Assembly (NCBI GenBank): GCA_965204745.1
Contig: OZ242010.1
Location: forward strand, 4,160,001-4,224,000
Length of the DNA stretch: 64,000 nucleotides
Direction of reading: 5' to 3'
DNA from: Candidatus Latescibacterota bacterium
GTDB taxonomy: Bacteria; Latescibacterota; UBA2968
The position numbers were made by a program, and so were the translations under genes. The notes under the pieces were generated by a model. It did no database searches. It worked only from the letters and a program-made list of their open reading frames with translations, and was not told where the DNA came from. Each line of letters opens with the position of its first letter. The stretch's first letter is position 1. Shown one piece after another: positions 2,662 to 48,769 of the stretch.

Positions 2662-3283
2662 TGTGTTGAAACAAGGCGCGAGACGCATTCAATAAAAGCA
2701 AGCGCGATTGGTTTTGCTAGGTTCTGTTAACATTTTATTTTTTTGACGTATGCACAGAGTAGCAACTGTGTTGCTTGCTCATTTAAGGCGTTTGGTCCTA
2801 CAGCCTCGTTGGTTGCCTCCGATGCCTTCGGCGACTTACTTTTTTTTAACAGCAAAAAAAAGTAAGCAAAAAATGCCGCTCTCAAACGCCGAGGGGCTTG
2901 CACAGCGCAAAGCGCTTTTGTAACAGAACGATATGCGCCAGCCTGCAAGGTGGGTTGCATAATGGATGTTGGTTGCGAGACGGCCTTGCGCGCTGTGCGT
3001 GATGGCTTTAGCTGATGGTCTTTTGCGAGAGCACTTATTGGGATGCCTTCTTTGAACTGCGGAACGTCCGTGAATACGATGAGCGTGGTAGCAAAAACGA
3101 GAAAACTGAAGGATCAACTGTTCCAGTTTCTCAAACCGAGAGCATATTCTGCGATAGGGCTTGATTTTCCCGATAAACCGCTCAAGCTAGTTGCAGTGCT
3201 CGTAAATGTCAACACAACCTAACCGCCAAAGGGGTTGGGCGGACTGACCACTGACCACTGACCACTTGTTTTCCTGCCTCCCG

Positions 3284-11779: not shown

Positions 11780-11807
11780 TGTCAGTAGTCAGTAGTCAGT
11801 AGTCAGT

Positions 11808-12991: not shown

Positions 12992-13146
12992 GTTGTCAGT
13001 TGTCAGTTGTCAGTTGTCAGTTGTCAGTTGTCAGTTGACTAATTCTAACGAACATAGCGGTGGGGAGCGAGCGGGGACTGACCACTGACTACTTGGGTGG
13101 TAGGGTCAGGTGGGGGCTGACCACTGACTACTGTCAGTTGTCAGTC
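12992..13146. repeat. (GTCAGTT)n heptamer array plus ~118-bp dispersed element C
   Basis: About 6 heptamers, followed by a near reverse complement of 48042-48159 / 48599-48716. Confidence 0.85.
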
Positions 13147-32440: not shown

Positions 32441-33481
32441 TCATCCAAAAAACACTTTGGCGATGTCGTAAAGCCCCATATCCACGGTACGCAATTTCGA
32501 CACGGCCTCTTTCAAATCAATCGCGATGATGTTTTGACCGCGCAATGCGACCATCTTGCCAAAATTGCCCTCGCCTATCAGGTCGATGGCCGCAATCCCA
32601 AATCGCGTGCTCAATACGCGATCATAAGCCGAGGGGCTGCCCCCGCGCTGGATATGGCCCAACACGGTTGCGCGGCTTTCATAGCTGGTTCGCCGCTCGA
32701 TTTCATCGCTCAACAAATTGCCAATGCCGCCTAGACGCACATGCCCAAAAGCGTCTTTTTCGCCGGACTGCAACACCATGCTGTCGTCTTCGAGCTTCGC
32801 GCCTTCGGCCACCACCACGATGCTAAATGTCTTGCCGCGCGCGTGGCGTTTGCGGATGGTATCGCACACGTCGTCCAGATCAAACGGCACTTCCGGGATC
32901 AAGATCACGTCCGCGCCCCCTGCGATACCCGATTCCACGGCGATCCACCCGGCGTGGCGCCCCATAACTTCTACGACCATCACGCGGTTGTGCGATTCCG
33001 CGGTGGTGTGCAGGCGGTCTATGGCTTCCATCACGATATTGATGGCCGTGTCAAACCCAAAGGTCTGATCCGTGCCATCCAAATCATTGTCAATCGTCTT
33101 GGGCACGCCGACCACCTTGATGCCCTCTGCGCTGAGGCGATAGGCCACGCCGAGCGTATCGTCGCCCCCAATCGCGATCAGCGCGTCCAAGCCCATTTTC
33201 CTCATGCCATCTCGAATGAGCGCGCCGCCGTCTGCCCCGTCTTGATACGGATTGGTTCGCGACGATCCCAAAATCGTGCCCCCGCGCGGTAAAATCCCCG
33301 AGACAGTGTCCAAAGTGAGCGGCTGCGACCTCCCTTCGAACATCCCCTTCCAGCCTTCCAACACCCCGATCATTTCGTAATCGTAAGTTGCAATGCCCTT
33401 GCGAACGATGGCGCGGATCACCGCGTTCAACCCCGGGCAATCGCCGCCGCCGGTCAGGATACCAACGCATTTTATACCCAT
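32441..33481 (-). CDS. pfkA: 6-phosphofructokinase (PfkA family, GGDD/PKTIDND signature)
   Basis: TGGGDCPGLNA, GGDDT, PKTIDND, MGRHAG, LGHIQRGG; ATG 33481 with GGAG RBS. Confidence 0.95.
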   Translation of the reverse strand: MGIKCVGILTGGGDCPGLNAVIRAIVRKGIATYDYEMIGVLEGWKGMFEGRSQPLTLDTVSGILPRGGTILGSSRTNPYQDGADGGALIRDGMRKMGLDALIAIGGDDTLGVAYRLSAEGIKVVGVPKTIDNDLDGTDQTFGFDTAINIVMEAIDRLHTTAESHNRVMVVEVMGRHAGWIAVESGIAGGADVILIPEVPFDLDDVCDTIRKRHARGKTFSIVVVAEGAKLEDDSMVLQSGEKDAFGHVRLGGIGNLLSDEIERRTSYESRATVLGHIQRGGSPSAYDRVLSTRFGIAAIDLIGEGNFGKMVALRGQNIIAIDLKEAVSKLRTVDMGLYDIAKVFFG

Positions 33482-33539
33482 GAAATCTCCTTTGCAAAAT
33501 CTCAAAATAAACGCTCTCGTGCGATTTTCAAAGGCTTCA

Positions 33540-33568
33540 AGTGTATAAAATTGTGGCATCCATGTCAA
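33540..33568 (-). promoter_or_regulatory. sigma-70 promoter of pfkA-gap
   Basis: TTGACA-17 bp-TACACT. Confidence 0.65.
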
Positions 33569-33919
33569 GCCTGCCGTGAGGGAATCGGTGAATCGAGATA
33601 CGACTGCGATAGCAGTTCATCGACGAATCAGCGAATCGGCAGAACCGGGGCCAACTGACCGTTTTTCAAGCCAAGTCACCACAGGCATCGCCCTACATTT
33701 CTATCCTCGTCTCTTACCGCTTACCTCTCGCGTCTGCCCTCTTGTTGGGCGGTCGGACGAACGGGTGGGGACTGACCTCTGCTTCCATCTTCGGGCACGC
33801 ACACGGCGGGGCTGGGGAGCGGCGGGGATCGCACGGGTGGCTGGGCGGAGCGGATGGGCACGCACCCGGCAGGGCGCGGTGGCGGGGTTGTCTCCCCTCT
33901 CCCCTCTTGTATCTTGGAA

Positions 33920-34150
33920 GTAAGGGTTAATTAGGAGTTGCGCCCTCGTATCGAGATAAGCCATCTTGATGCCCGGCTCGGGGAAGGCCGGCCCCTCTTG
34001 AAGGCGATGACCTTGTAGGTAAGATAGGCCCCCCGACCGCCGGGTCTATGCCGAAGAGTATCTAAGCCCCTTGAGGCTGCATATACAAGACCGGTAGACT
34101 TGGCGTCAATGGTCGGGACGCGACCCCGAGCGCGCACCAGATCCCTTACA
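33920..34150 (+). ncRNA. IS110 bridge RNA
   Basis: Two internal loops whose guides match the target (CCCCTCT 33992-98; AGGTAAG 34017-23) and the donor (AGAGTATCT 34055-63; ATACAAG 34083-89); ends approximate. Confidence 0.85.
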
Positions 34151-34174
34151 ACCCCCTCATCACAGGAGGCCCCC

Positions 34175-35182
34175 ATGTCGAAATCTCACCCCGCTTTTGC
34201 CGGCATTGATGTCAGTGCCCGCACGTTGTCCGTTGCCCTGTCCAGACCCGGACAAGCTGTCATGCAAGCGACCTTTGCCAATGATCCCCAAGCGCATAAG
34301 CGGTTGCTGAAGTGGCTCACGAAGGGCGGGCACATGGTCTCTGTGTGCCTCGAAGCGACCGGGCTTTACAGTTTGGGGGTGGCCTTGGCCTTGCATCGGC
34401 ATCGCCACACAAAGGTCATGGTCGTCAATCCCAAAGCGATGAGCAAGTACGCCCAAGCCTGCATGCAACGGGCGAAGACGGATGCGAAGGATGCGTTGTT
34501 GATCCTCGACTATGCCGAGCGCATGCCTTTTGTGCCTTGGCAAGCGCCGAGCGAGCAACGGCTTCAACTGCAAGCCCTCACCAGACGCATTGACCAACTC
34601 AAGCAGGAGATCATCCGCGAACAGAGCCGCAACCACGCGCAGAGCTACCACATCCGCAGCACACGTCTCATCGCACGCGATATTCAGGTGAATATTCGAC
34701 ACTTCAAACGCCGGATTGCATACTTGGAAAGCCAAGCCCTCGATCTCGTTTTGCACGATGAGCCCCTCAAGCGTGCCTACCAACGCCTCTGCTCGACGCC
34801 TGGCATCGCGCAAACGAGTGCCTTGCGGCTCTTGGCCGAGTTGACCCTTTTGCCAGAGGAGATGCAACCGCCCCAGTGGGTCGCACATGCAGGCCTGGAT
34901 CCCAAACCCAAACAATCCGGAACCGCCAATCCACAAAGACGCATCTCGAAAACCGGGAATAAGTACCTCCGCCATGCCCTCTATATGCCTGCCTGGGTGG
35001 CCATCAGACACGAAGGCCATGTCAAAGCCTTCTATGACCAACTCATCGCCCGCGGCAAGAAACCTTTGCAGGCTATCGTTGCGGTGATGCGAAAGTTGCT
35101 CCATTCGATCTGGGGCATGTTGCGCCATGACCAAGATTTTGAGGGCGAAAAATTCTATCGAATCACCCCGAAAACCCCTTGA
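34175..35182 (+). CDS. IS110 DEDD recombinase/transposase
   Basis: GIDVS, CLEATG, KTDAKDA, AGLDP..QSGT (catalytic Ser), ISKTGNKYLRHALY; AGGAGG RBS. Confidence 0.96.
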   Translation: MSKSHPAFAGIDVSARTLSVALSRPGQAVMQATFANDPQAHKRLLKWLTKGGHMVSVCLEATGLYSLGVALALHRHRHTKVMVVNPKAMSKYAQACMQRAKTDAKDALLILDYAERMPFVPWQAPSEQRLQLQALTRRIDQLKQEIIREQSRNHAQSYHIRSTRLIARDIQVNIRHFKRRIAYLESQALDLVLHDEPLKRAYQRLCSTPGIAQTSALRLLAELTLLPEEMQPPQWVAHAGLDPKPKQSGTANPQRRISKTGNKYLRHALYMPAWVAIRHEGHVKAFYDQLIARGKKPLQAIVAVMRKLLHSIWGMLRHDQDFEGEKFYRITPKTP

Positions 35183-35242
35183 CCTTTTAAGAGAGTATCT
35201 TACCTCTTACCGAAAGGCGGGGCGGAGAGGCGAGGAACTGAA

Positions 35243-37528
35243 TCATATTCCAAATCCCCCCCTGCGGTGCTCGATTTTTATCTGCGGAATGTCTTTGATA
35301 TTGAGCTTAAAAAAGAAGCCCTTGTTGAAGCCCGTGGGGTACCACGAAAATCGGGCTTCCCAGCAGTGGAGGTCGCGGTACAGGGAGAGGCTTTGCGCCG
35401 AGAGGTTGGCATCGGGCAAAATCTCCACATTGACCGCATAGTCTATCCGCAACATTTGAAGGGGATTGACGCCCAAATCCGCTTTGACCCACGAGGTTTT
35501 GCTCGATGTTGTGCCGAATCGCCGCATGGCAATGTAGTGCGAGAGGTTGAATCGCCACGGCCCGGTGCCGGAAAAATCGCTGTACAAATCGCGTTCAAAG
35601 CCAAAATCCGCATCCGAGTAATCGCGGGAGGTCGAAGAATGAGACGGTTGCGTGCGCGGATCAGCGTGACCGCCGGCAAAGCGAAAATTGGAGGTGACGG
35701 TGAGGTTTTGCAAGCGCGGGTGCAAGAGGGACCTGGCGCCCGCATCGTCGTAGAGCCTGTGCGTCATGGCAATGCGAACATCCACGCGGGAGTCCGGTTT
35801 GAGGGATGCGCGGGTGCGGAGGGAACGCCATTTTTGCGCGGGCGCGTCAAAATCGTAGCCGGTAGCTATGTTGAGCGTGGCCAGGGTAAAGCGATGAAAG
35901 TCGTCGCCGCGTTGGGTTTTGAGTTCGAGCGTATTGCCGATAGACAAGTTGACGCTGCGCCTGGCGTCATGCCACTTGCGATTGCCCCCAAAGCCAAACG
36001 CGCCGCCAAAGATGCTACCGGTCTGGCTGTAATTGAAATTGATCTGGGGGTGTAACCGATGCCGAATGCCGCGCAAGCGTCCGAGGCGCGGTTGGAAAAT
36101 GCCGTACAATGTCGTACCCGTTGCGATAGCCGCGCTGTAAGACGTGCGCCGCGTGGTCGAATCCGCGTCGCTGCGTATCAATTCCTCGCTGAGATTCAAA
36201 CTCGGCGTGAGGTCGAGCCAGCCCATGGGCCGGTGCTGGCTGTTGACCGTGAGGAGGTTTTGCAGGGAAACGCGCGCGGTATTGGACGTCGGATCTGGGT
36301 TGCGCGTGAAGTTGTTGCCCAGGTTGCTCGAAAATCCGTAGTAAAAAGCGCGATACCACGGGCCTGTGGCAGAGTCCTCGCCGCCAAAGATGCGGCGTCT
36401 GGGTTGTCGAAAACCGATGCGGGGAAAGCCCTGAAAGCTGTTGGTCTTTTTGTTCAAATCTCGGTAGTAAGTCAGGCTACCGTCGATGCTGCGCCCGGAT
36501 TCGGGCCAGCGTTTGTCAAACGACAAACTGGAGCGCAGTTGCTGGTTGAGATAGCGATACAAATTGTCGCTGTTGCGGCGGTCAAAGCTGGTGCTGGTGG
36601 AAAATTGCCCGCGCCCTCGGATGTTGGTCGTGGCATTGAGGCGGTGCTGGTGTTGCAGGTTGACGCGCCAGTCGTGGGCCGTGCCGGTCGTTGAGGTGTT
36701 GCGGTCGTAGCCGAGATCCACCGCGCCGCTGAACCTGTTTCGCACTGCGTACGCGCCCCGGGATTCGAGCAAGAAGCCTCCGCGCTCTCGAAACGTGCCC
36801 TTCACAGTGGCATCCCAATAGTCACTCGACGCGAAATAGTACCCGAGATTGCGGACGAAAATCCCATCCCGGCTGTTGTTGCCCACCCCCGGCGTGAGCA
36901 AGCCGGATTGCCGCCCTTGCTTGACCGGAAAAACGAAAAAGGGCACCCAGAAGACCGGGACAGGCCCAATGCGGAAGGTGACGGAGCGACCGATGGCTTT
37001 GTCATTTTGCAAAATGCGTACATTCTTGCACGAGAAGTCGTAGTGGACGTGATCGCGGTCGCAGGTGCTCAATGAGAGGTCATACGCATTGAGGGCGTCT
37101 TGGCCTTCGAGCGCGATTTGGGCGCCGCGGTAGTATTTTCGCTGGTGGGATGCGCGCCCGGTTCGCACGCGCCCGCGTTCCGTGTCGAGGTTGTAGCGCA
37201 TGTACGCGCCTGAGATGCGTTCCGCGCCGCGAGTGAATTGGGGCAGGCCCAGGGTTTTTGCCCCTGTGGAATCGGGCAGGGCGCGCGCCGTGACCGTGCG
37301 GGTATTTTGATCGTAGGTGATGTGCCCGGCTTTGAGCGCGATATTGCGGTAGCGCAAGGTGGCATTGCCCACGAGTTCCACCTGCTCGTCCCGCACGCGA
37401 TAGACGACCTCATCCGCGTCAAACGCGATGGAATCCCCCGGCGCGTTTTCCGGCACTTGCCCCCATCCCTGCGTGGCGCATAAGACCCATAGCGCGACGA
37501 GGCATAATTTTTTTTTTCCCATCGTCAT
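35243..37528 (-). CDS. lptD: LPS-assembly protein LptD-like
   Basis: Signal peptide, OstA-like N-terminus, STCD..H, RQSGLLTP..G, C-terminal RDLHCWE. Confidence 0.85.
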   Translation of the reverse strand: MTMGKKKLCLVALWVLCATQGWGQVPENAPGDSIAFDADEVVYRVRDEQVELVGNATLRYRNIALKAGHITYDQNTRTVTARALPDSTGAKTLGLPQFTRGAERISGAYMRYNLDTERGRVRTGRASHQRKYYRGAQIALEGQDALNAYDLSLSTCDRDHVHYDFSCKNVRILQNDKAIGRSVTFRIGPVPVFWVPFFVFPVKQGRQSGLLTPGVGNNSRDGIFVRNLGYYFASSDYWDATVKGTFRERGGFLLESRGAYAVRNRFSGAVDLGYDRNTSTTGTAHDWRVNLQHQHRLNATTNIRGRGQFSTSTSFDRRNSDNLYRYLNQQLRSSLSFDKRWPESGRSIDGSLTYYRDLNKKTNSFQGFPRIGFRQPRRRIFGGEDSATGPWYRAFYYGFSSNLGNNFTRNPDPTSNTARVSLQNLLTVNSQHRPMGWLDLTPSLNLSEELIRSDADSTTRRTSYSAAIATGTTLYGIFQPRLGRLRGIRHRLHPQINFNYSQTGSIFGGAFGFGGNRKWHDARRSVNLSIGNTLELKTQRGDDFHRFTLATLNIATGYDFDAPAQKWRSLRTRASLKPDSRVDVRIAMTHRLYDDAGARSLLHPRLQNLTVTSNFRFAGGHADPRTQPSHSSTSRDYSDADFGFERDLYSDFSGTGPWRFNLSHYIAMRRFGTTSSKTSWVKADLGVNPLQMLRIDYAVNVEILPDANLSAQSLSLYRDLHCWEARFSWYPTGFNKGFFFKLNIKDIPQIKIEHRRGGFGI

Positions 37529-41734: not shown

Positions 41735-42212
41735 ATGCGAATTAAGCGTTGGATCCATCGCGTGCTTGTCCTTTCGCTACTCGGTGGATTCAATCCCTCT
41801 CGGTCCCGTCTCAATGGTCAACCAAGATCGAGACGTTTATTGGGACCTACCCCCCTAACCCCCCTTCCTGTGAGGAAGGGGGGAATGGCGAGAGGGTTTG
41901 TGAGGGATTTGCGCGAGAGGTTTTTGGGGTTCATGGCGTGATCCATTCGCTCAAAGCCATCAAAACAGCTAGGGATACAAACCTTCAAAAAGCCATGTGC
42001 TCCCCCTTTCCTTGTAGGAAAGGGGGCCGGGGGGATAGGTCTATGGCGGCAGGGGGAATAACATCTCTGCGTTGCGGGGAAGAACTGGAGGAGGGGCATC
42101 GTTTGTTTTTAGACACGTTCTAAGGGGCGATCCGATACTGGATGACTCGTTGAGGTCTTTGGGCGATTGGTCGAGGCTTGCTTCTTACTCGTTTTCTACT
42201 CTTAATTCGCAT
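41735..42212 (+). mobile_element. MITE, complete copy
   Basis: TIR ATGCGAATTAAG / CTTAATTCGCAT, 5-bp direct flank TGTCA. Confidence 0.8.
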
Positions 42213-42476
42213 TGTCAGTTGTCAGTTGTCAGTTGTCAGTCCCCACCCGACCACCCAACCTGAAGTGAGCCACACGAGGCGATTAGCCACGAGCGGGGTA
42301 CAACTGGCGATAGCCCGTTCAAAGGGGCTTGCCTCTTGCCTCTTGCCTCTCACCTCTCACCTTTTTAGGCGATAGCCCGTTCAAAGGTGATCAGTGAGTG
42401 TAGGTCTTCTCCCGTCTTGCCTCTCACCTCTCACCTTTTTTTTAACTCCCATTACTCGCTCCTTTGAGACTCCATA

Positions 42477-46983: not shown

Positions 46984-47881
46984 TTCAGCGAACAAAACTC
47001 TGGTCGCATTTCAAGGCGAGTACGGCGCGTTTAGCGAAATGGCGGCGCGTTCCTATTTTGGCGAGGATGTGCAGGTTGCGCCACAGCGCGATTTTGCGTC
47101 TCTATTTGCAGGGGTCGAACGCGGGGATTGCACGCACGGGATGGTGCCCATTGAAAATTCGTTGATGGGTAGCATTCACGAAAATTACGACCATCTGTCC
47201 GCGCACAATTTGCAGATTGTGGGCGAATTGAAATTGCGAATCGTTCACAACTTGATCGTGAATCCCGGGGTCGCGTTGGCGGATGTGCGCTCTGTTTATT
47301 CCCAAGCCCCTGCCCTGGCGCAATGTGCCGAGTTTCTCGCGTCGTTGCCGCGGGTCAAAGCGGTGATGGCGTCCGATACCGCGGGCGCGGTGAAGGCATT
47401 GAAGGCGTCGGGCGCGCGCGATGCCGCCGCGATTGCGAGTGCCCAAGCAGCCGTGGATTACGATCTGGAAATTCTACGTGCGGGCATCGAGGACGACCAT
47501 CAAAATTACACGCGGTTTTTGGTGGTGACAGCACGGGCGTTCGCGCCCGAAAAGCCGGCCATCACAGGCCCTGCAAAAACGTCGATTGTGTTTGCGATGA
47601 AAAACGTGCCGGGCGCGTTGTTCAAAAGTTTGAGCGTGTTTGCCTTGCGCGATCTCAATTTGCTCAAAATCGAATCCCGCCCCCTCGCGGGCAAGCCCTG
47701 GGAATACGCTTTTTCGCTGGATATCGAAGGCCACCTCGGACAAGAACCCTGCGCCCGCGCCATCGATCACCTGCGGGAAATCGCAACATTCGTCAAGGTG
47801 CTCGGCTCGTATCGACAAGGCGATGCGGTCGAAGGGGAAATCGTAAGACGCGAGATGAAAGGCGTAAGACGTGAGACGTAA
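46976..47881 (+). CDS. pheA: prephenate dehydratase
   Basis: FQGEYGAFS, PIENS, NYTRF, KIESRP (ACT domain). Confidence 0.95.
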   Translation: MDNSANKTLVAFQGEYGAFSEMAARSYFGEDVQVAPQRDFASLFAGVERGDCTHGMVPIENSLMGSIHENYDHLSAHNLQIVGELKLRIVHNLIVNPGVALADVRSVYSQAPALAQCAEFLASLPRVKAVMASDTAGAVKALKASGARDAAAIASAQAAVDYDLEILRAGIEDDHQNYTRFLVVTARAFAPEKPAITGPAKTSIVFAMKNVPGALFKSLSVFALRDLNLLKIESRPLAGKPWEYAFSLDIEGHLGQEPCARAIDHLREIATFVKVLGSYRQGDAVEGEIVRREMKGVRRET

Positions 47882-48041
47882 GACGTGAGACGGGAGACGT
47901 GAGACGTGAGAAGCCACCCAACCCCCTTCGCCTTTCATCCGCTTTCATCCGTGTTGCGTTTCGCTTTTCGCCTTTCACCTCTTGCCTCTCACCTCTCACC
48001 TTTTTGAGCATCGCCCCTACGAAGGGGGTTAGGTGGGGCGG

Positions 48042-48765
48042 ACTGACAACGGACAGTATTCAGTGGTCAGCCCCCACCTGACCCTACCGCCCAAGTAGTC
48101 AGTAGTCAGTCCCCGCCCGCGCCCCACCGCTATGTTCGTTAGAATTAGTCAACTGACAATGCGAATTAAGAGTAGAAAGCGAGTAGGAAGCAAGCCGAGA
48201 CCAATCGCCCAAAGACATGGACGAGTCATCCATTACCGAATCGCCTTTTAGAACTCGTCGTAAAACAAACGATAGATGTTCTTCCCCTTCCTCGTAGGAC
48301 CTATCCCCCCGGCCCCCTTTCCTACAAGGAAAGGGGGAGCGCATGGCTTTTTGAAGGTTTGTCTCCCTGGCTGTTCTGATGGCTTTGAGCAAATAGATCA
48401 CGCCCTGGAAACCCAAACCCCTCGCACAACCTCTCGCCATTCCCCCCTTCCTCACAGGCACAGGCGTAGCCTACAACGAAGCGTAGCGAGTAACGGGGCC
48501 AGGGGGGTAGGTCCCAATAAATGGATGCAACGCTTTATTCGCATTGACCACTGACCACTGACCACTGACCACTGACCACTGACCACTGACCACTGACCAC
48601 TGACAACGGACAGTATTCAGTGGTCAGCCCCCACCTGACCCTACCGCCCAAGTAGTCAGTAGTCAGTCCCCGCCCGCTCCCCACCGCTATGTTCGTTAGA
48701 ATTAGTCAACTGACAACTGACAACTGACCACTGACCACTGACCACTGACAACTGACCACTGACAA
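48042..48765. repeat. 118-bp direct repeats (element C) and (TGACCAC)n arrays bracketing a MITE
   Basis: 48042-48159 matches 48599-48716 (1 mismatch seen); about 8 heptamers at 48545-48600. Confidence 0.88.
48159..48544 (-). mobile_element. MITE, complete copy (opposite orientation)
   Basis: ATGCGAATTAAG...CTTTATTCGCAT; flanks TGACA/TGACC. Confidence 0.78.
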
Positions 48766-48769
48766 CGCC

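Follow-up and report, generated by a model that had tools for sequence, protein, structure and literature searches.

An IS110-group insertion sequence with a predicted bridge RNA inhabits heptamer tandem arrays in a Latescibacterota genome

Bridge recombinases are in development as programmable genome-writing tools, and mechanistic work has mostly concerned IS621 and a few close relatives. In the published accounts of IS621 of Escherichia coli (PMC11208160; PMC11208158), a recombinase with two Pfam domains and five catalytic residues is served by an RNA encoded in the left end of the element, upstream of the gene. Each of the two internal loops of this RNA holds a 5' guide that has the sense of the top strand and a 3' guide that complements this strand; a CT core lies within all four pairings, and the circle junction divides a promoter in two. 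The layout described for the RNA runs in series from a 5' stem-loop through a target arm (nt 34–98) to a donor arm (nt 110–177), and the title of Choi et al. (2003) gives REP elements as the target. Here, we analysed a 64,000-nucleotide stretch (the window) of a Candidatus Latescibacterota genome, positions 4,160,001–4,224,000 of contig OZ242010.1, in which a 1,293-bp element lies at window positions 33906–35198, counting one CT core (1,291 bp plus CT). This feature is very probably an intact IS110-group insertion sequence that moves by bridge-RNA-guided recombination.

The locus resembled IS621 in the respects listed above, apart from the series arrangement and the REP target; its bridge RNA and its split promoter are predictions. 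The two donor 14-mers are one base apart, AGAG... here as against ACAG... in IS621, which agrees with the original prediction; the Methods of PMC13396178 give the IS621 donor as ACAGTATCTTGTAT. The target-loop handshake would be AU, as given for wild-type IS621. The differences lie in the target, a heptamer tandem array in place of REP elements, and in the target guides, of which the right one is contiguous over 7 nt and the left one matches to one base past the core. A blastn search (word 11) of 5,426 E. coli genomes with the whole element gave no match. The borders of the element are as follows.

33899 to 33905, plus strand: left target half (LT), CTCCCCT, host DNA outside the element and the last heptamer-array unit
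33906 to 33907, plus strand: left copy of the CT core; CT/CT in 52/52 copies, and a single CT in an empty-site contig
33908 to 34174, plus strand: left non-coding end (LE), 267 nt, predicted to encode the bridge RNA; starts with the right donor half (RD), TGTAT
35192 to 35198, plus strand: left donor half (LD), AGAGTAT, the final bases of the element
35199 to 35200, plus strand: right copy of the CT core
35201 to 35205, plus strand: right target half (RT), TACCT, after which the host array runs on as CTTACCT CTTACCG

The left junction reads CTCCCCT-CT-TGTAT (33899–33912) and the right junction AGAGTAT-CT-TACCT (35192–35205). The two ends, TGTATCTT... and ...AGAGTAT, do not form inverted repeats. 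The absence of long terminal inverted repeats, and of any target duplication beyond the shared CT core in the 52 copies, is as found in the IS110 group. Within the left end, four segments correspond to these ends and flanks, and each of the two loops has a candidate handshake dinucleotide.

33992 to 33999, plus strand: left target guide (LTG), CCCCTCTT, with the sense of target positions 3–10 and predicted to pair with the bottom strand
34017 to 34023, plus strand: right target guide (RTG), AGGTAAG, reverse complement of core plus RT (CTTACCT)
34024 to 34025, plus strand: putative target-loop handshake guide (AT), predicted to pair with donor positions 7 and 6 once strands have been exchanged
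34055 to 34063, plus strand: left donor guide (LDG), AGAGTATCT, identical to right end plus core (35192–35200)
34083 to 34089, plus strand: right donor guide (RDG), ATACAAG, reverse complement of core plus left end (CTTGTAT)
34090 to 34091, plus strand: putative donor-loop handshake guide (AC), whose first base would pair with target position 7 (T)

In the target loop, the LTG has the sense of LT plus core over 8 contiguous nt (CCCCTCT at 33992–33998, with the match extending to 33999), and the RTG is complementary to core plus RT over 7 contiguous nt. In the donor loop, the LDG has the sense of LD plus core over 9 nt, and the RDG is complementary to core plus RD over 7 nt. The original prediction had claimed that all four guides match the element's own donor and target, and chance did not reproduce this: 50,000 mononucleotide shuffles of the left end (267 nt) gave none with all four flank-predicted 7-mers, each 7-mer appearing singly in 366–1,090 shuffles, two in 47 and three in 2. 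The product of the single frequencies is ~2e-8. The junction, guide, hairpin and stem strings that it had named were all found in their places, both in the sequence and with a motif locator. For the guide-target and handshake tables, loops were parsed by alignment columns. The first base of the target-loop handshake pairs with donor position 7 in 21/21 rows, including locus L066 (donor AC with GT), while that of the donor-loop handshake faces target position 7, with a Watson–Crick pair in 15 of 21 rows, a wobble in five and a mismatch in one.

The host genome, a single contig of 5.48 Mb, was searched by blastn with the element. There were 77 high-scoring segment pairs, of which 52 were full-length copies and 25 partial. 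Thirty copies were 100% identical over 1,294 bp, and seven were 99.1–99.9% identical. Four subfamilies could be distinguished: 37 copies at 99% or above (A), eight at 96.1% (B), two at ~95% (C) and five at ~89% (D). The ends of other copies had been set as a test that could refute the original prediction; all 52 have CT at both junctions and the same ends. Every insertion lay in a tandem array of pyrimidine-rich heptamers, for example CTCCCCT, CTCTTAC and CTCTTGC. Two neighbouring array units make up the 14-bp target, and this bears out the proposal of a new natural target. Among the 45 A and B copies, 41 had CCCCT as the five bases to the left of the core, with positions -1 to -3 invariant and C at -4/-5 in 41/45, and the five bases to the right were TACCT in 24 and TGCCT in 17. 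Both right halves can pair (A-U or G·U), because the A/G alternative faces a U of the RTG.

Occupancy of such sites was graded. The perfect 12-mer was occupied at 20 sites and free at five (80%), and its G·U (A-to-G) variant was occupied at 17 and free at 65 (21%; Fisher p = 1.2e-7 as compared with the perfect site). TACCT-CT-TACCT was occupied at four sites and free at 83, TGCCT-CT-TGCCT was occupied at none and free at 241, and sites mismatched in the left target half showed 0–5% occupancy. The occupancy gradient tracks base-pairing strength, U·G included, and could be read as an in vivo specificity profile obtained without experiment. A second IS110 family serving the other heptamer classes was excluded, as 57/57 genomic PF01548 matches belong to the family described here.

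Genome-wide, TRF reported 1,195 period-7 arrays covering 42,366 bp, with unit families AACTGAC (199), ACCACTG (142) and ACTACTG (113) beside a pyrimidine-rich CTCNNCY set, the only heptamer family used by the element. Heptamer arrays in the window include those at 3243–3266, 11781–11807, 12992–13037, 42212–42436, 47863–48003 and 48545–48766. They may resemble the short heptamer tandem repeats of some cyanobacteria. At genome positions 1121592–1124182, a B copy and then an A copy lie head to tail on the minus strand with one heptamer unit between them; an array unit regenerated beside an insertion can be reused as a target. Insertion orientation could not be related to replication, as the cumulative GC skew of the genome, lowest at 0.74 Mb and highest at 5.47 Mb, did not show two usable arms.

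Guides and flanks changed together. Subfamilies A and B carry guides CCCCTCT and AGGTAAG at CCCCT-CT-TACCT. The C copy at 1297034 has LTG TCCCTCTC and RTG AGGTGAG at TCCCT-CT-CACCT, and D copies have LTG CGCCTCT or TGCCTCT and RTG AAGTAAG at CGCCT/CACCT/TACCT-CT-TACTT, with a right-half match in 4/5 copies. The LTG base past the core (U in A, C in C) tracks target position 10. How loop and flank changes relate had been posed as a further refuting test, and the flanks match the target loop and differ where the loop differs. Two complete Latescibacterota-labelled chromosomes carry recombinases 76–84% identical to that of the window; one group there has RTG AGAAAAG at CT-TTTCT and the other LTG CTCGCCTCT at CTCGCCT-CT, likewise in heptamer arrays. 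The LTG of group F, CGCCTCT, is shared with D. A search of the phylum gave matches in 12/168 genomes, including the window's own, and in 2/20 other genomes of the same genus.

Lineages at 48–64% identity have targets that differ greatly, and the loops of each lineage mirror its own target; the non-heptamer targets of nine further lineages include AGCAT-CT-CATGC, ATAGT-CT-CACCT and TTCGG-CT-AACGT. When 13 representative guides were compared all against all, the mean summed complementary run was 14.2 for cognate pairings as compared with 7.7 in 156 non-cognate pairings. The guide's own target ranked first for 12/13 (three tied) and second for the remaining one. The guide-target table leaves out L058 and L031, for which the left flank or the ends were unavailable. 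The donor is near-invariant across lineages, which fits the statement of Durrant et al. (PMC11208160) that the second loop is the more conserved. Donor covariation was seen in one lineage alone, L066, with right end GAAAAC-CT and LDG GGAAAACC; there, the two bases after the RTG switch from AU to GU, in line with the handshake rule given in the IS621 structure paper. The core itself varies in three relatives. L075 and L080, from one genome, have AT at the left junction and CT at the right, and L032, from a Salinibacter plasmid, has AT at both. The LTG of all three ends in AT, a natural non-CT first core base of the kind reported to be tolerated by IS621.

The gene next to the left end was characterized by comparison with protein families and solved structures.

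34164 to 34169, plus strand: AGGAGG, ribosome-binding site, five bases ahead of the ATG
34175 to 35182, plus strand: recombinase gene, 335 aa plus TGA (open reading frame (ORF) 34175–35179), with catalytic D12, E60, D103 and D106 (DEDD) and S248-G249

The protein matched PF01548 (N-terminal DEDD RuvC-like domain; 1.2e-24, 87.3 bits, cut-off 29), PF02371 (C-terminal Tnp domain; 4.8e-20, 72.2 bits, cut-off 21.3) and NCBIfam NF033542, 'IS110 family RNA-guided transposase' (213.8 bits, cut-off 140). Among solved structures, its best phmmer match was ISCro4 (9t56; 7.6e-40, residues 7–326), a likeness assessed by protein chain alone; IS621 (8wt6), from which the protein is distant, followed at 5.8e-36. 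In the phmmer alignment with 8wt6, D12, E60, D103, D106 and S248-G249 align with D11, E60, D102, D105 and S241-G242, the residues that the IS621 structure paper reports as essential. By tblastn, the nearest plasmid-borne relative was a Salinibacter element at 52% identity, and E. coli plasmid IS110 elements stood at ~32%. These domain matches and aligned residues support assignment of the protein as an IS110 family RNA-guided recombinase, and the original description of the element as an RNA-programmable recombinase orthologue is upheld to that extent. Its description as intact also stands, as the 335-aa frame is kept in 51/52 full-length copies.

Mobility was assessed in contigs of four public runs, from four studies, compared over 33700–35400; contigs drop rare forms. 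A 1,736-nt metagenome contig of run X3, from another study, joins 33904 to 35198, skipping exactly 1,293 bases, and its flanks, 33706–33904 and 35198–35400 (199 + 203 bases), have zero mismatches. This contig is the precise empty site, CTCCCCT-CT-TACCT, of the same locus. A 1,258-nt contig of run X4 bears the element without differences. Another X4 record, joining 35220 to 33890 via 33 other letters, was considered as a circle and rejected; it reflects a different genomic arrangement. Copy identity and the empty-site contig together suggest recent mobility.

Two hexamers near the ends would form a promoter in the circular form only.

35179 to 35184, plus strand: TTGACC, -35-like hexamer, overlapping the TGA stop
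33910 to 33915, plus strand: TATCTT, -10-like hexamer

Circularization would place TTGACC and TATCTT 18 bp apart, the geometry originally predicted. In 11 related loci, TTGA(C/A/T)N and TA(T/C)CTT (TATCTA in L032) stand 17 bp apart across the junction, and TTGA(C/A/T) is at a constant distance from the core in 11/11. This arrangement would be consistent with promoter reconstitution across the junction of right end (RE) and LE, in line with the published account in which excision rebuilds a sigma-70-type promoter. The T run at 35185–35188, between TTGACC and AAGAG, has four T residues in A copies (18-bp spacer) and three (17 bp) in eight B copies, some D copies, all distant relatives and the contigs of X3, X4 and X5. 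Its length might tune promoter strength.

The structure of the predicted RNA was assessed by folding single sequences and by covariation, and would comprise the following parts.

33948 to 33972, plus strand: 5' stem-loop, GTATCGAGAT / ATCTTGATGC, from the single-sequence minimum free energy (MFE) fold; one one-sided change, U-G to C-G, in C/D
33976 to 33983, plus strand: 5' strand of closing helix P0, GCTCGGGG, present in the MFE fold of 16/19 sequences
33986 to 34030, plus strand: target-binding arm, with basal stem GGCC/GGCC (33986–33989 / 34027–34030) and an internal loop holding both target guides
34032 to 34117, plus strand: donor-binding arm, with an internal loop holding both donor guides, from RNAalifold and pair counts
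34124 to 34131, plus strand: 3' strand of closing helix P0, CCCCGAGC

The target arm carries a hairpin AAGG/CCTT (34001–34004 / 34011–34014). In the donor arm, the stems are CCCGACC/GGTCGGG (34032–34038 / 34111–34117), GCCGGGTCT/AGACTTGGC (34039–34047 / 34096–34104; containing GTCTA/TAGAC) and GCCG/CGGT, with a hairpin AGCC/GGCT (34065–34068 / 34075–34078). RNAalifold on a MAFFT alignment of 19 sequences, from which L032 was left out for its large hairpin insertions, recovered both arms and their hairpins, with both-sided changes in 14/30 predicted pairs. Single-sequence folds placed a long-range helix around both arms in 16/19 sequences, with letters differing by lineage: GCTCGGG/CCCGAGC is replaced by ACTCTGG/CCAGAGT, ACCTCTGG/CCAGAGGT, TTGCTGG/CCAGCAG or TCCCGGG/CCCGGGA. 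A covariance model that included this helix found all training loci, and its sole match in the 64-kb window was 33972–34139. Outside the training set, it matched an E. coli plasmid left end (34.3 bits) and a Salinibacter plasmid (33.5 bits).

In the model-based alignment, 85.5% of cells were paired as compared with 75.0% in shuffles and at most 48.5% in slid controls. Both-sided changes affected 27/40 pairs, as compared with 14.0 in shuffles, and 0/500 shuffles reached 27. Helices 2 and 3 were 100% paired, and 16/24 pairs of helices 4–8 had both-sided changes. P0 had both-sided changes in 7/8 pairs and was 67.6% paired, a value that partly reflects misalignment. It is probably an underestimate, because the ends of distant sequences had been misaligned by MAFFT and model-based realignment cured only part of this; the single-sequence folds are the cleaner evidence. 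A long-range helix appears to enclose both guide arms. The IS621 layout originally predicted held for both arms, for the guides and for the published strand rule, but perhaps not for the arrangement of the arms, which a covarying helix appears to enclose here and which stand in series in IS621, as judged by comparing architectures rather than by aligning the two RNAs base by base.

By analogy with IS621, transcription, circle, catalysis and the order of steps would be as follows. The element would leave as a circle, its right end joined to its left via CT, and this joint would put TTGACC 18 bp upstream of TATCTT. The resulting promoter would drive an RNA of ~200 nt from the left end, and probably also the recombinase gene behind it. 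[quoted passage not shown] The DEDD/Ser recombinase would then swap strands at CT between AGAGTAT-CT-TGTAT and CCCCT-CT-TACCT. On this scheme, donor AGAGTATCTTGTAT would recombine with target CCCCTCTTACCT, a D-type target loop would shift specificity to CGCCTCTTACTT, and the A loop, offered CCCCTCTTACCT, CCCCTCTTGCCT, TACCTCTTACCT and CGCCTCTTACTT, would prefer perfect over wobble sites and wobble sites over left-half mismatches. Mutations in the target loop have probably yielded the subfamilies homing to other heptamer variants.

The pairing of guides and flanks might have another origin. All targets have CT in a pyrimidine-rich context, abundant arrays make matching cheap, and low-complexity C/T runs are common to helices and guides, so that the recombinase itself might read the heptamer repeat and the left-end matches be mere by-products of ends and repeats. 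We regard this as highly improbable in view of the coupled guide and flank changes in four subfamilies and nine non-heptamer lineages, the first rank of the cognate target for 12/13 guides, the four matches in 0/50,000 shuffles, and an occupancy that tracks base-pairing including U·G. Several observations nonetheless count against bridge-RNA-guided movement as proposed here. The copy at 602780–604073 (locus L091) has a D-type loop, TGCCTCT / AAGTAAG, but C-type flanks, TCCCT-CT-CACCT, with an RTG run of three; its 3' part is like subfamily B, and it is probably a chimera produced by recombination or gene conversion between copies. L067 has no LTG run under the scoring used, and two A copies at CT-CCCGT and four A and B copies at TACCT-CT-TACCT are misfits. 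Position 7 is T in the target as well as in the donor, so that in each loop the leading handshake base could also pair with its own DNA, and cognate pairing at handshake positions reduced recombination in the published IS621 work. The junction AGAGTATCTTGTAT has 0 occurrences in the genome, and an RE-LE joint (35198 to 33908) was found in none of the contigs of the four runs, which cannot show rare forms. The bridge RNA, with its start and end, is itself a prediction, Rfam 15 covariance models gave no match at E <= 1 over 33700–35400, and the pair counts are biased, as the alignment was fitted to the model structure. The missing circle junction, a predicted RNA, handshake positions that pair with cognate DNA, inhibitory in IS621, and an 18-bp spacer one longer than the 17 bp of relatives would also suit a genuine bridge-RNA element that is now silent, its copies being relics of an old burst and the empty site an older strain difference. 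Such silence is unlikely given 30 copies 100% identical over 1,294 bp and seven more at 99% or above, 51/52 intact ORFs, occupation of 80% of perfect targets, and an empty-site contig with 0 mismatches in ~400 bp of flank, which places the two populations very close to one another. Bridge-RNA-guided movement of an intact element is accordingly the reading that we retain.

Within that reading, the fold of the RNA is contested. The G run of P0 has a local alternative partner, the C run at 34031–34035, and an IS621-like serial RNA would then consist of the 5' stem-loop, a target arm with CGGGG-AA-GGCC / GGCC-CCCCG as its closing stem and the donor arm, the long-range helix not forming in the active complex. 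The local stem CGGGG/CCCCG was picked by RNAalifold on the MAFFT alignment and is 90.4% paired (23 sequences), its bulged A residues would match the flipped-out A described in the IS621 target-arm stem, and an E. coli element with a protein much nearer to IS621 (1.9e-70) folds serially, with a fold energy no better than that of shuffles. Only 1/5 of its pairs has a both-sided change, however, and because the stem is nearly invariant, covariation neither supports nor excludes it; the long-range helix has such changes in 7/8 pairs and is in the MFE fold of 16/19 sequences. The C run is, moreover, also required for the covarying base of the donor arm (helix 4). We consider the serial arrangement credible but somewhat doubtful. 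The proposition that the bridge RNA is a three-way junction closed by 33976–33983/34124–34131, taken together with the view of the same genome as a natural reprogramming experiment, in which target-loop changes of one base divided a single element into subfamilies, each settled in its own heptamer variant, could go either way, and the chances that the enclosing helix is a clade-specific variant are about even. If the three-way junction is real, the donor arm lies within the stretch that in IS621 forms the 3' strand of the target-arm stem, and P0 would hold the two guide loops in a set position relative to each other. Switching of the G run between local and distal C runs might act as a conformational gate. 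The topology is possibly new. Among the papers listed, and judged by titles, none was on a bridge RNA with such a three-way junction.

Other described elements share some of these properties. According to the available accounts (PMC12288879; bioRxiv 10.64898/2026.03.19.712850), ISPpu9 and ISPpu10 of Pseudomonas putida are IS110 elements residing in multi-copy intergenic repeats, and both they and the present elements would reach many copies because they insert in such repeats. They differ in using REP-type or single conserved intergenic targets, not tandem heptamers, and ISPpu9 is given seven copies, as compared with 52 here. The IS1111 group (seekRNA) belongs to the same protein family and likewise chooses targets by RNA guidance. 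In IS1111/seekRNA elements, the RNA lies downstream of the gene and there are subterminal inverted repeats; here, the RNA would be encoded upstream of the gene. The element belongs to the IS110 group by every criterion that could be tested, and by analogy it should work like IS621. The new aspects are the lineage that hosts it, its heptamer-array target, the extent to which it has expanded, the joint diversification of guides and targets in one genome and the occupancy gradient. We found no paper linking IS110 with Latescibacter or heptanucleotide repeats, although the orthologue supplements of Durrant et al. may already list the element or relatives of it.

The insertion in the window is intergenic and breaks no ORF. 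Its neighbours, at 32441–33568 and 35243–37528, both lie on the minus strand, opposite to the element, and read from their translations alone as a phosphofructokinase-like ORF and a 761-aa ORF. The DNA left of the insertion (33576–33905) is G-rich with imperfect GGGNGGN-like repeats, and the left border ...GCGCGGTGGCCTTCTCCCCT is conserved at many other copies. The heptamer arrays may belong to a larger composite repeat.

These findings leave the known mechanism unchanged. They add a distant orthologue from an uncultured lineage, with relatives labelled Latescibacterota and reads from sponge and marine metagenomes. The element offers a compact and legible guide set, a contiguous 7-nt RTG, a near-IS621 donor, naturally retargeted variants with known cognate sites and, possibly, a different RNA scaffold topology. 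Its 52 insertions and the several hundred free near-cognate sites are a natural read-out of mismatch and wobble tolerance, and illustrate how an element guided by RNA can make use of a family of short tandem repeats and diversify along it.

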